IMG/VR virus record: IMGVR_UViG_3300005077_000489
Coordinates: 96,001 to 160,000 of that record
DNA length: 64,000 nt
Direction: 5' to 3' (one strand)
Source of the DNA: a virus
Taxonomy: Duplodnaviria; Caudoviricetes
Shown: piece after piece, positions 26,787 to 63,888 of the stretch
Layout of the letters: the number at the start of each line of letters is the position of its first letter
Position numbering within the stretch: position 1 is the stretch's first letter
Program-made: the position numbers and the translations under genes
The notes under the pieces: generated by a model
Databases searched by the model: none
The model's input: only the letters and a program-made list of their open reading frames with translations
Told to the model about the DNA's origin: nothing

Positions 26787-27098
26787 ATGGCTGTAATTAC
26801 AGGTTTAGGTCCATCTCGTAGAATTAAGTTGGAACAAAAAAATCCAGGTGGGACTACAGGTTCTGGTTTATATTGGAAATTAGACCTTATTTCTGCTGGT
26901 CCTGGTGTTACCATTGATTACAAAGAACTACATAGTTCCGGGGATTTAACTGCGGACAAGAATCTGGTACCGTGGGGTGCCAAGGTTATGAAGGTTGCAG
27001 AGATTTCTACTACTAGTGGGTATTATGGAGATATCCCCGTTGCTAGTGGTACTCTTACAGTGGCTAATGGTATTATCACTGGATATACTCCTGCGTAA
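26787..27098 (+). CDS. Small structural protein with spike/fibre-like C-terminus (103 aa)
   Basis: SD ggaggg. The C-terminal GTLTVANGIITG resembles trimeric beta-strand spike ends. Confidence 0.5.
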   Translation: MAVITGLGPSRRIKLEQKNPGGTTGSGLYWKLDLISAGPGVTIDYKELHSSGDLTADKNLVPWGAKVMKVAEISTTSGYYGDIPVASGTLTVANGIITGYTPA

Positions 27099-27100
27099 TA

Positions 27101-27469
27101 ATGGGTTGGTCTAGAAGAGAAGATATAACAATTGATCTGACTGGTATAACTGATAAAAACCAGCCAGGTTATTGTCATAAGTTGTGTCCATATAGTACGG
27201 CATATAGAGATAAGTACCAATACACGGGGAAAATTTGTACCGGAATGGTCGGCGGGGAACCACAGTACCAAACAGGAACCTTTGTATTAGGAAATTCTAA
27301 TGATCGTACTCTATATGGTGTAGCGTATGCTACGTATGAGTGTTCTGAACATACAACTACTAGTGGTCGTATGTTTTATAAGGACAATCCACCGGGCTGG
27401 GCTTGTAAAGACCCAGCCTGTTACTATCATACTACGGTTGCTAGCGGCGAATGTTACCAGGAGGTTTAA
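27101..27469 (+). CDS. Cys/His-rich small protein (122 aa)
   Basis: YCHKLCPY, KIC, YECSEH and ACKDPACYYH motifs; 7 Cys; starts 2 nt after the previous stop. Confidence 0.6.
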   Translation: MGWSRREDITIDLTGITDKNQPGYCHKLCPYSTAYRDKYQYTGKICTGMVGGEPQYQTGTFVLGNSNDRTLYGVAYATYECSEHTTTSGRMFYKDNPPGWACKDPACYYHTTVASGECYQEV

Positions 27470-27473
27470 TAAA

Positions 27474-28175
27474 ATGGCTATTAATGAAACCGTTTATTCA
27501 CCTCTCTATCCCAACAACACTAAAACAGTTACTATTGATTTAGTATCAAGAATACCTTTGGGTGAGGGGGGCGACGAAAAGTATATACTATCAGTATCGG
27601 TTGGTACTAATGTATATAGTGATATAGCAAATAGTACTAGAATATCTCCCATCTACATTTATGAGATGCGGAGAGGTTGGGCTCAGGGTTTTTCCATAGA
27701 TTTTCCTGTGGTGACTGCTGGGGGAACTCTTACTATTGCTATTGATGAAGCAGATAGCGGGGCTGTTACTGTAGATGTGGCATCAGGTACCTTATCATCT
27801 AGTACTCTTATACAAAGCTTACAGTATCAGTTGAGGGCTACTGCCTCTGGTAGTGGAGTGAAGGCAACTGCTTCTAATAAGCTAAGTTATATGAATGCCG
27901 AAGCGGTGGTGGAGGACGGTCGTCTCACTTTCTTATCAGGTTCTACAAAGAAGTCTTACAATTCTTCTACTTGGTCAGAAACATCGAGTGTTAAAGTTAC
28001 CGGAGGTACTGTCGCAGATGAGTTAGGTTTTTCTACTGGATATCCTAACTCTTATGATTTGGCTACAACTACTTCGGGGGCTTTACATGGACCTGCGTCT
28101 GCCCATGCTACGATGGATGATGCTGTACGATTTGCAGTTATGTCAATTGTTAATCAGATAGATTTTTCTGGTTAA
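27474..28175 (+). CDS. Structural/adaptor protein with an inserted sheath-associated-like domain (233 aa)
   Basis: The real start is probably ATG 27474 after SD ggaggt (the track's 27327 start overlaps the previous gene). Ends resemble the 181-aa protein; the middle resembles the N-terminal domain of the 539-aa protein (ADELGF vs ADALGF). Confidence 0.6.
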   Translation: MAINETVYSPLYPNNTKTVTIDLVSRIPLGEGGDEKYILSVSVGTNVYSDIANSTRISPIYIYEMRRGWAQGFSIDFPVVTAGGTLTIAIDEADSGAVTVDVASGTLSSSTLIQSLQYQLRATASGSGVKATASNKLSYMNAEAVVEDGRLTFLSGSTKKSYNSSTWSETSSVKVTGGTVADELGFSTGYPNSYDLATTTSGALHGPASAHATMDDAVRFAVMSIVNQIDFSG

Positions 28176-62216: not shown

Positions 62217-62217
62217 C

Positions 62218-62250
62218 TATCCTGCTAGGAATTACAGCAGGGTATCTTTG
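62218..62250 (+). terminator. Possible intrinsic terminator or processing hairpin
   Basis: TATCCTGCT (62218-26) pairs with AGCAGGGTA (62236-44) with one G-U, followed by only a weak U-tract (TCTTTG). Confidence 0.35.
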
Positions 62251-62268
62251 TAATGGAGGATTTTTATT

Positions 62269-63888
62269 ATGGCTACACCACGTTGGACGGAATTCTATAC
62301 TAATAGTAGTGGGGTTGGTATAAGCTCCTATTTAAACTTAGGACATACACATGATTATATGTACGGGAGAGGTACTCCTCCAGCATTACGTGGTATTACT
62401 CCTAGTGAAATACCAATAACCCTAACCTCTTCTACTAATGATTTGATGGTAACAATGAACGATGGGTTGGCTTCCACGTCAAAGACATTTACCCTGGCGA
62501 GCGGAACAAACCTAGACCCAAAGATTCTAGCACAAGATATAACAGATAAGATGCATCGCGAATACCCTACCAATCATCCTATCTGGACTAATGCCTATTG
62601 CTTTTGGTGGGATAATGCGTTTGAATTACGGGCTGGAATTGCAGGATTAAATGCCTCTGTTTCTGTTGACTACACAGCCAATAGTGCTGCAGATGCTCTA
62701 GGCTTCACCCACGGTGTCACTGCTTATGGTTCTGATAATTACAGATTATACGGTGGACAAATAGCTGCCGGAAATAAGACTACCAATACTTGGAGTGGGT
62801 CAATGACCGGTAGCGGAACTTCTTTTGCTCCATCTTGGGATGAGTATGTGTTAATGGCAGTTAATGGTGATGCTGGCACCGGACAAGGTACCGCCGAGAT
62901 AATTACTCATGCTAGTGGTTCCTATCCTGGAACATTAACTTTAGGTGGTATCTATAACTATGGTGATAATACGACCTATCACATGCACGTAACAGTCAGT
63001 GGGTCTTCTTCTTATATGACCGGAGTAAAGGATGCTGTTCCTGTTATGACTTGGTATGGTGAAGGTGGCGATACTACTATGTCTGGTTCACAAGAATTGC
63101 TATATGCTAATTATCCGTACCCATTAGGTAATAAGGGTTTGTGGGTGAAATTTACAAATGCACCTTTTACTTATCCTGGGGATGCTTGGCAGATACAGGC
63201 TAGTGGAGTGTTAACACCGGAAGGATATGACTACCAGTGGGGTTCCGCAATGCGGAAAGTTATATGGAGTTCTATTAAAGGTGACACCGAATGGACGCAA
63301 CAATCAACCGCTACCTTTGGTAATTATTTTAGGGTTGGAAGGGCTGGTGTATATTTGTCAGCCAATCAAGACTACAATGTGGCACCTGGGGATGTAATTC
63401 GTGTGCGGGTCCCTGGTCCTGTTCCTTATAGATATGATGTATCTTCAGTTGACTTAGGTAATATTACTGTTACTACGGCTTCCAGGGTTGTGGCCATGCG
63501 GTTTGACTTAATAGCTGGGGCTGTGGAATTAACTAATGTTAAGTTTAGTTTATTAAATAATGGCGGTATGGGTTATCATGACGGAGTTAATACTCGCTTT
63601 CCTTATGGTACTGTGGGTGCTGGTCAACCAGCGGTAAACACAGATTATGATGTTGGTTGGTGGAACCAAGTCAATGTGAATGACTTAACTCCTCCTAAAC
63701 CGGATTACTTATATGAGATAGATAATAATTTAACTGTGGTATCGACTGCCGACGATTCTAAGACAGTGGGTATAGACCCATTTACATCGTTGATGTCTGA
63801 CTTTATTTATTTTGCAATACAATTGGGTGCTGATGAGAGCGGTCAGAAGACTGTTATTTACAGATGTTATTTTGACTATACGGAGTAA
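62269..63888 (+). CDS. Virion structural protein with nested beta-sandwich repeats (539 aa)
   Basis: SD ggagga. N-terminal domain similar to the insert in the 233-aa protein. Two G(L/V)(W/Y)...PGD(A/V)(W/I) modules. Confidence 0.7.
   Translation: MATPRWTEFYTNSSGVGISSYLNLGHTHDYMYGRGTPPALRGITPSEIPITLTSSTNDLMVTMNDGLASTSKTFTLASGTNLDPKILAQDITDKMHREYPTNHPIWTNAYCFWWDNAFELRAGIAGLNASVSVDYTANSAADALGFTHGVTAYGSDNYRLYGGQIAAGNKTTNTWSGSMTGSGTSFAPSWDEYVLMAVNGDAGTGQGTAEIITHASGSYPGTLTLGGIYNYGDNTTYHMHVTVSGSSSYMTGVKDAVPVMTWYGEGGDTTMSGSQELLYANYPYPLGNKGLWVKFTNAPFTYPGDAWQIQASGVLTPEGYDYQWGSAMRKVIWSSIKGDTEWTQQSTATFGNYFRVGRAGVYLSANQDYNVAPGDVIRVRVPGPVPYRYDVSSVDLGNITVTTASRVVAMRFDLIAGAVELTNVKFSLLNNGGMGYHDGVNTRFPYGTVGAGQPAVNTDYDVGWWNQVNVNDLTPPKPDYLYEIDNNLTVVSTADDSKTVGIDPFTSLMSDFIYFAIQLGADESGQKTVIYRCYFDYTE

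Follow-up and report, generated by a model that had tools for sequence, protein, structure and literature searches.

The tetrapeptide Thr-x-Ser-Gly (written T.SG here, the dot standing for any residue) is a convergently selected, residue-specific motif on a subset of the virion proteins across a large phage lineage. The analysis starts from a 64,000-nucleotide stretch of DNA, called the window below, which covers bases 96,001 to 160,000 of the 211,229-bp virus contig G000 (IMG/VR record IMGVR_UViG_3300005077_000489) of an uncultured phage, 86% complete by CheckV. We regard it as plausible, with a probability of roughly 0.45, that T.SG serves as an acceptor site at which enzymes of the phage itself add O-glycans in the cytoplasm. 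The window contains the C-terminal 6,583 amino acids (aa) of a tape-measure-like open reading frame (ORF), hub/baseplate-like genes, and from position 26787 a fibre-type block in which the motif concentrates, with products of 103, 282, 4,741, 864, 1,167, 181, 458, 513, 661, 385, 1,892 and 539 aa; all window features named below lie on the plus strand. The annotation of this block is sparse, limited to PHROG 'tail protein' for the 1,167-aa product and weak Big_1 and discoidin matches, most other ORFs being without a match. No cultured relative is found, the best terminase matches being about 25% identical and belonging to Bacillus phages, and at least 307 IMG/VR contigs have a related capsid protein. 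Seven large relatives were obtained whole or nearly whole; the relatives used here include G004 (545 kb), G006 (269 kb), G010 (256,335 bp), G011 (228 kb), G003, whose contig is without the fibre block, and G008 (87% complete).

Size and specificity of the enrichment

With expected counts computed from each protein's own composition, the ORFs between 26787 and 63888 have 67 T.SG, and the inclusion of a 214-aa ORF running off the window gives 69 against 7.7 expected. Residue shuffles within the proteins of the block average 7.8 with a standard deviation of 2.7 (z 22.8), corresponding to an enrichment of about 8.9-fold, and for the large proteins the observed count is reached in none of 500 shuffles. 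In the upstream 8,500 aa or so, only one T.SG is present (TMSG, in the tape-measure part) against about 3 expected, and the next five ORFs have none. A first-pass annotation of the window, made without database searches, had counted by hand 26, 17, 6 and 4 sites in the 4,741-, 1,892-, 1,167- and 539-aa proteins and about 68 in the block, against some 8-9 expected, together with the single upstream TMSG. Our script returns the same counts, and the enrichment, put at about 8-fold at that time, turns out stronger, around 9-fold, and persists after the correction for composition.

We then scanned all gapped two- and three-residue patterns without bias. T.SG comes out on top with z 21, ahead of T..SG at z 11.6 and SG at z 9.3, and no other pattern with real counts comes near it. 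The dipeptide SG itself is enriched 2-fold in the block. Given SG, Thr at position -2 is 4.4-fold enriched in G000 (z 14) and 4.1-fold in G004, and Thr at -3 is enriched 2.6- and 3.0-fold respectively, while all other upstream offsets stay at about 1-fold; about 38% of all SG dipeptides in the block have Thr at -2. For the non-structural proteins of the same phages, the corresponding value at -2 is 0.9. The blocks of G000 and G004, analysed independently, show T.SG at 9.0- and 8.6-fold, and the conservative variants, listed in the same order, stay near or not far above expectation: T.TG at 1.9 and 1.0, S.SG at 2.9 and 2.7, V.SG at 3.0 and 1.9, T.AG at 1.0 and 0.8, T.SA at 0 and 1.6, T.SS at 1.4 and 1.7, T.NG at 0.8 and 0.4, and T.DG at 0.4 and 0.9.

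On the side of DNA, the Ser codons of the motif include AGY in 46% of genome-wide sites against a background of 33%, all Ser codons being used, and codon choice for Thr, Ser and Gly within the motif tracks the background with no fixed base beyond the forced ones. Since both families of Ser codons are used, the signal lies in the protein and not in the DNA. The N-terminal tail of the 1,892-aa protein (56547..56609) well illustrates this, with four T.SG in 21 residues (TISG, TGSG, TTSG and TVSG, at residues 4, 10, 16 and 21) whose Ser codons are AGT, TCT, AGC and TCG, just as first read; three of the four sites are kept in the G004 ortholog, and ESMFold2 gives the 60-aa N-terminal stretch a predicted local distance difference test (pLDDT) of about 32. 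In the logo of the sites, position -1 and x are hydrophobic or small, with charged residues at 3% against 18% in the background, and Thr or Ser is favoured directly after Gly.

Known modification signals do not account for the block. The general O-glycosylation sequon of Bacteroidota is D-(S/T)-(A/I/L/V/M/T), which is not enriched in the block (43 observed and 50 after shuffling, 0.86-fold), and the same is true of N-x-(S/T) (124 and 126, 0.98-fold) and DGY (1.5-fold, z 1.1), with [ST]GS at only 2-fold. Acidic neighbours of the type found at glycosaminoglycan (GAG) attachment sites are not found either, acidic residues within three positions of SG being at 1.2-fold (z 1.3); together with the low share of charged residues, this removes the analogy to eukaryotic Ser-Gly attachment sites that the first-pass annotation had drawn, as far as the flanks are concerned. 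We found no paper using 'TXSG' in the sense of a sequon.

Distribution among the proteins

Most of the sites belong to four proteins of the block. The 4,741-aa fibre-like protein (28195..42420) has 26 T.SG against 2.9 expected, with a peak density at residues 2790-3100, and the 1,892-aa fibre-like protein (56538..62216) has 17 against 1.5. The 1,167-aa tail protein (44989..48492; PHROG 17517, with a weak discoidin-like domain) has 6 against 0.78, and the 539-aa conserved protein (62269..63888) has 4 against 0.5, located at residues 174, 180, 242 and 270. Outside the window, the highest count is met in a 1,090-aa protein encoded just upstream of the capsid gene, having a discoidin domain and 23 T.SG against 1.4 expected; its true repeats read 'LT-TTSG-DIVxQIPSLxGYATQxWV' and 'EIS-TISG-GxGDVT'. 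The 107-aa protein preceding it has 3 T.SG, a 111-aa protein in the head module has 2, and a 296-aa protein with propeller-blade-like repeats, also outside the window, has 5. A fibre family represented at genome positions 55353-58625 is widespread with its homologs and shows segmented repeats such as 'YYTxxEVD-T[ILV]SG-xLQxxID', HxH-type motifs and discoidin domains; in this family T.SG presumably takes the slot where related fibre repeats have plain hydrophobic residues.

The smaller proteins of the block have fewer sites. The block opens with the 103-aa ORF (26787..27098) with two T.SG (TGSG and TTSG), followed by the 282-aa protein (27327..28175) with 2 against 0.26 expected. The 864-aa protein (42402..44996), which shares a paralogous C-terminus with the 4,741- and 1,167-aa proteins, has 3 against 0.34, the 661-aa protein (53372..55357) 2 against 0.29, and the 385-aa protein (55372..56529) 3 against 0.30; the last one shares a weak Big_1 match with the 458-aa (48991..50367, Ig-like) and 513-aa (51829..53370) proteins, each having 1 against 0.27. 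These sub-threshold Big_1 and discoidin matches lie away from most T.SG sites. In a Pfam scan in which the 4,741-aa protein was represented by paralogs of its regions, no match is found in these paralogs or in the 1,892-, 864-, 661- and 539-aa proteins, and within the same scope no profile of the known repeat families (autotransporter PATR, hexapeptide, Big/Ig) covers the motif regions. An IscB-like gene with RRXRR and HNH domains (50596..51822) is inserted in the block, has no T.SG and is not part of the system; it looks mobile, because its best match in G004 (40% identical) sits about 240 kb away from the fibre block there.

Most of the remaining proteins stay at the baseline. The C-terminal 6,583 aa of the tape-measure-like ORF (2..19753), which serves as the internal control, has 1 T.SG against 2.1 expected, and the whole 13,616-aa ORF has 4 against 4.4; in each of the five genomes examined, the tape-measure ORFs are at about 1-fold. 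The orthologs of this ORF (genome 74903-115753) vary widely in length, with 14,711 aa in G004, 12,315 in G010, 7,667 in G006 and 7,473 in G011. No T.SG is present in the major capsid protein (genome 60211-61281), and the hub genes and all replication and metabolic genes are not enriched. A 3,141-aa downstream protein has 2 against 1.4 (1.4-fold), and its 2,187-aa neighbour is borderline, with 3 against 0.9 in G000 (3.4-fold) and 5-7 against about 1.1 in G003, G004 and G010. Pooled over G000, G003 and G004, the non-structural ORFs (163,220 aa) have 35 T.SG against 33.7 expected, or 1.04-fold; therefore the baseline of the lineage is 1.0 and the motif is not avoided. The enrichment is also not general to fibres, because the long tail fibres of T4 are at the baseline (gp34 with 1 against 0.8, gp37 with 1 against 1.05). 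A 953-aa hybrid sensor (genome 64175-67036) with a receiver, PAS domains, GAF, HisKA and HATPase_c lies inside the structural block of the genome and is kept in G003, G001 and G006.

Convergence and turnover of the sites

Duplication does not explain the sites. Only 6 of the 69 sites of the block fall in paralogous or internal high-scoring segment pairs, and none is shared with the partner segment. Between orthologs of G000 and G004, which are 41-46% identical, 27-50% of the sites coincide, while the totals are held, at 26 and 25 in the 4,741-aa protein, 17 and 22 in the 1,892-aa protein, 6 and 9 in the 1,167-aa protein, and 4 and 4 in the 539-aa protein. Five further orthologs of the 4,741-aa protein were retrieved from 1.8 billion cluster representatives (clusters at 50% identity), and the six sequences, with pairwise identities of 38-53%, have 16-31 T.SG each against about 3 expected and show the same residue specificity as in G000. 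In their six-way alignment, the 143 sites are spread over 93 columns, of which 66 (71%) are private to one sequence and none is common to all. Conservation at the sites is 0.63 for Ser against 0.37 for other Ser, 0.53 for Thr against 0.40, and 0.35 for x; the flanks are slightly less conserved than the average (0.41 against 0.45), and the sites adjoin alignment gaps more often (41% against 24%). Substitution of Ser by Thr at the sites equals the background (0.10 in both). In the slowly evolving 539-aa family and the 111-aa protein, the sites are conserved in position, and new ones arise near the N-termini. On the whole, this is the pattern expected when selection acts on a short motif and also on how densely it occurs, in variable, loop-like places. 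New sites arise again and again at other positions, and it is therefore probable that something reads the motif.

The same motif dominates most of the relatives. Among all a.bc patterns (one residue, any residue, then two residues), T.SG comes first over the whole genome in G000 (z 19.5), G010 (z 18.1), G004 (z 17.1), G006 (z 8.1) and G011 (z 5.6), and it ranks second in G003; in G008 it is not prominent, with 29 against 14.9 expected. The first-pass view of a convergent protein-level signal confined to the outer virion proteins therefore holds, and now extends to the seven relatives. Two of these genomes also have a genome-wide excess of Cys patterns (C.NC and C.KC in G004; G.RC, C.YC and C.TC in G008), which suggests that repeat proteins of the Cys-rich or zinc-finger kind form large families there. 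A locus search with the 1,090-aa repeat protein found no related loci, and a degenerate DNA pattern for 'TSGDIVxQIP' returned small or already known contigs only.

Structural setting of the sites

A model of the 539-aa protein built from 27 homologs has a pLDDT of 79 and a predicted template modelling (pTM) score of 0.85. By VIA-align, myophage sheath proteins have an outer domain similar to residues 33-158 (E217, Z 11.3; XM1, Z 10.3), and the flagellar proteins FlgL, FlgK and flagellin have outer domains similar to residues 205-318 (Z 6.7-8.4). A Foldseek search of the PDB gave no clear whole-chain match and one local match to a sheath, so the identity of the fold rests on the VIA-align domain matches. 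The motif Ser is kept in 23-24 of the 27 homologs. Site 174 lies in a low-confidence loop and site 270 in a loop, while site 180 ends the strand 179-182 and site 242 is the last residue of the strand 235-242, with its V-S-G in coil. For residues 2700-3560 of the 4,741-aa protein, holding about 15 sites, the model comes from an alignment of eight sequences and is not usable for site mapping, its mean pLDDT being 38; exposure is therefore seen for four sites only. Judged from the modelled structure and the logo, a site would typically occupy the end of a strand, where its residues face outward and a Gly turn follows, or else a flexible tail. Exposed loops had been predicted for a sequon, and the 539-aa sites do fall in loops and at strand ends; a recurrent strand end followed by Gly, which had been named as evidence to the contrary, is present as well in a weak form.

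The glycan gene cluster and a candidate reader

The search for glycosyltransferases and sugar-nucleotide enzymes that the first-pass annotation had proposed reveals a large conserved toolkit at genome 187.5-211 kb. It includes two genes of glycosyltransferase family 4 (GT4-1 and GT4-2), both intact-looking, two Glyco_trans_1_2 genes with weak exostosin/RXYLT1-like matches below the Pfam thresholds, five methyltransferases including a sugar O-methyltransferase of the TylF type, two sulfotransferases with one adenosine phosphosulfate (APS) kinase, three epimerase/dehydratases, a nucleotidyltransferase, a cytidylyltransferase and a GHMP kinase. Synteny of the cluster extends to G003 and G004. Conservation through the lineage is lacking for the sulfation genes, which therefore cannot be essential to the motif. 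Genes of LAGLIDADG homing endonucleases are interspersed in the cluster (genome 197222-198229 and 204242-205030). Between the glycosyltransferase genes lies a 591-aa gene (genome 190144-191919) of a viral DUF723/treble-clef zinc-finger family, its C-terminus being GNAT/Mom-like; four paralogs are present in G006, two of them adjoining capsid and sheath-like genes.

GT4-1 (genome 187581-188942) is among the best-conserved genes. Its identity is 72% to G004 and 68% to G003; apart from it, only the capsid protein and the 539-aa protein are that similar. Its match to PF00534 (E 1.8e-5, 24.8 bits) is just below the cut-off of 26.4, and the orthologs in G003 and G004 are above it; the two glutamates of the EX7E motif (E307-x7-E315) show a conservation of at least 95% across 120 homologs. 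By its sequence, GT4-1 is thus a predicted retaining glycosyltransferase of the GT4 family, having both the C-terminal Glycos_transf_1 domain of the GT-B fold and EX7E. The best solved structure is glycosyltransferase B736L of chlorovirus NY-2A (3oy2), a weak match with E 7e-6. Overall, 725 strong homologs are found on large viral contigs, and GT4-1 is present in every large relative examined; in G010, both the gene and the T.SG enrichment are confirmed on one contig. More distant homologs (31-34%) occur in the cultured siphoviruses S-CBS4 of Synechococcus (NC_016766, 9916-12282) and TJE1 of Tetrasphaera (NC_019930, 5388-10731), grouped with a second glycosyltransferase, an epimerase and a methyltransferase, among or beside head-morphogenesis genes, a placement that hints at virion glycosylation there too. 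As test systems, these two phages are unconvincing, since T.SG enrichment is absent in TJE1 and mild in S-CBS4 (20 against 9.5, 2.1-fold, rank 15).

Other destinations of the cluster were searched for as well. WbaP-type PF02397, WecA/MraY-type PF00953 and Wzx PF01943 are absent from G000 at its 86% completeness, while control genomes gave matches. The thymidylate-synthase family PF00303 is absent from G000, G003, G004 and G006, two of which are 100% complete; according to PMC13326640, the known pathways to glycosylated DNA bases begin with an enzyme of the thymidylate-synthase type. A search for TET/JBP was empty, and it carries no weight because it had no positive control. No Ser/Thr protein kinase is present in the ORFs scanned against Pfam, which are part of the genome, and the 'kinase' match in PHROG is a hybrid histidine kinase.

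Interpretation and alternatives

The specificity, the convergence and the turnover pattern of T.SG together call for a reader. O-glycosylation of the motif Ser is the best single explanation, because the toolkit is conserved, apparently cytoplasmic, and without evident other destination. According to this explanation, selection would keep Thr-x(1-2)-Ser-Gly dense on the outward-facing virion proteins, namely the tail fibres, the head- or neck-fibre-like 1,090-aa protein, the small decoration-like proteins and the protein resembling a sheath outer domain. The Ser, and possibly also the Thr, would be O-glycosylated in the cytoplasm, with the conserved GT4 pair as the best candidate for the enzyme reading the peptide. 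The other transferases, the sugar-nucleotide enzymes, the O-methyltransferases and, in some members, the sulfotransferases with the APS kinase may build and decorate the glycan. Of the proposal first made on the window, the enrichment stands, the toolkit has been added, and the routes through a lipid carrier and export or through thymidylate synthase are not found in the genomes searched; the attachment of sugar to Ser is the part that we infer, as are the reading of the motif by an enzyme, the glycan nature of the modification, the choice of enzyme, and the purpose of a coat, which may be shielding, stability or adhesion. Somewhat more tentative than the acceptor role itself is the full picture, in which a huge aquatic or environmental phage lineage, with the at least 307 contigs mentioned above, writes T-x(1-2)-S-G on every outward-facing appendage and the GT4 pair adds there a phage-made methylated, sometimes sulfated O-glycan; the result would be an evolvable coat with a shield-like turnover of sites and the first O-glycosylation sequon to be defined for a bacteriophage.

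Several observations weigh against glycosylation at T.SG. The attachment of sugar is derived from sequences, gene content and one model. Non-virion phage proteins do not avoid the motif (1.04-fold). No near-complete relative is without GT4-1, so the presence and absence of the gene offer no contrast, and the strength of the enrichment does not track GT4 identity cleanly: G008 has a GT4 of 44% identity and yet T.SG is only 2-fold and not the top motif, and TJE1 has one of 34% identity and yet no enrichment (5 against 4.8). A predicted complex between GT4-1 and the first 60 residues of the 1,892-aa protein scores 0.00, which is evidence in neither direction. A role in DNA modification is possible for part of the cluster, because of the Mom/GNAT-like gene. 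Finally, the local sequence (hydrophobic)-T-(hydrophobic)-S-G agrees with a beta-strand that ends in a Gly turn, and the motif is located within true repeats, such as 'EVD-TISG-xLQxxID', 'LT-TTSG-DIVxQIP' and the propeller-blade-like repeats of the 296-aa protein; because it occurs inside such structural repeats, a structural role is real at least in part.

The last points lead to the main rival, which we consider unlikely but of real weight, namely that T-x-S-G is a structural idiom of this lineage, a strand end with a tight Gly turn or a helix cap, serving folding or stability with no modification. It fits the hydrophobic or small residues at -1 and x and the scarcity of charge, which give an alternating strand pattern, and it fits the four sites of the 539-aa model, two ending strands and two in loops. 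A fixed register in the repeats of the 1,090-aa protein and its homologs, of the 296-aa propeller-like protein and of a G006 fibre agrees with it too, as do the positional conservation in the conserved small proteins and the lack of avoidance elsewhere. However, a generic turn should also raise T.TG, S.SG, T.NG and T.DG, which reach 0.4- to 2.9-fold against the 9-fold of T.SG, and the T4 fibres, the tape measure and the 3,141-aa protein are unenriched (the 2,187-aa protein being unclear). Private columns amounting to 71% with constant density are unusual for a feature determined by the fold, and the preference of the sites for indel-prone, less conserved surroundings also speaks against it.

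Less probable again is that the motif is read by something other than a glycosyltransferase, through another covalent modification or through docking of a decoration, cement or assembly protein, with the cluster serving DNA or the host surface. The specificity, convergence and turnover indeed argue only for a reader and not for its chemistry, the cluster has the DUF723/treble-clef gene with its GNAT/Mom-like part and four paralogs in G006, and viral glycosyltransferases often act on DNA or on host glycans (PMC12619734). Against it stand the lack of a thymidylate-synthase homolog in the four genomes, the lack in G000 of the searched lipid-carrier and flippase families for surface polysaccharide and, weakly given the partial Pfam scan, the lack of a Ser/Thr kinase. 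An artefact of composition, low complexity, domain duplication or DNA repeats has a negligible chance, for although Thr, Ser and Gly are abundant in the proteins, SG itself is raised and a few sites are clustered, as in the N-terminal tail of the 1,892-aa protein, the shuffles, the conditioning on SG, the lack of sites common to paralogous segments, the mixed codons and the same result in relatives at 40-50% identity at mostly different positions refute it.

Significance and comparison with known systems

Should T.SG prove to be a sequon, the glycosylation of virions would no longer be an oddity of a few mycobacteriophages but a trait of huge phages, coded and shared by a whole lineage. T.SG would then be an address label predicting which proteins and loops are coated, and so a handle for annotating the exposed virion proteins of uncultured phages; it would also give a role to many unexplained glycosyltransferase clusters of jumbo phages, and a GT4 with a short T.SG-rich peptide would make a minimal pair of enzyme and tag. 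The turnover would parallel the shields of animal viruses and raise the question of what phages shield against. If the motif is purely structural, it would still be an unusually sharp, convergently selected turn motif, useful for structure prediction and design.

Four known systems are close enough for comparison. In eukaryotes, glycosaminoglycans are attached at Ser-Gly, typically with acidic flanks. The Ser-Gly core is alike here, and the weak exostosin/RXYLT1-like glycosyltransferases, the sulfotransferases and the APS kinase of the cluster recall that system, while the acidic flanks are absent, the exostosin matches are sub-threshold and the sulfotransferases are not conserved in the lineage. 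The glycan shields on the envelopes of animal viruses are made of dense N-x-S/T sequons on exposed proteins, with sites turning over fast between relatives. The phage motif is likewise short, dense on exposed proteins and subject to turnover between relatives, whereas chemistry, compartment and enzymes are unrelated and N-x-S/T is at the baseline here (0.98-fold).

Giant viruses such as chloroviruses and mimiviruses glycosylate their capsid or fibril proteins autonomously (PMC4691112; chlorovirus review PMC7019647). Like the present phages, they have their own sugar-nucleotide synthesis and several glycosyltransferases, and GT4-1 has its structural match in chlorovirus B736L; they need no cellular secretory pathway, and their surface proteins are decorated at non-canonical sites. 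The two differ in realm and host, the similarity to B736L is weak and at the level of the family, and the sequons of giant viruses are different. To our knowledge, T-x-S-G is not among the latter.

The nearest case is in the mycobacteriophages, where, according to the summary of Freeman et al. 2023 in PMC12619734, phage-encoded glycosyltransferases glycosylate the virion, with glycans at the C-termini of the capsid and tail-tube subunits. Here too, a tailed phage has its own glycosyltransferases and sugar-activating enzymes, and the proposed target is its own virion proteins, in the cytoplasm. We know of no defined T-x-S-G code in the mycobacteriophage system, nor of a toolkit there that would count about 20 genes and include methyl- and sulfotransferases. 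The moraphages of PMC12619734 are another possible point of comparison, with four core families of glycosyltransferases and no recognised tape measure. Unlike the mycobacteriophage system, the present one is predicted from sequence, its capsid protein is without a site, and the motif stands at dozens of positions on fibre, head-fibre-like and decoration-like proteins, some of them at the N-termini.

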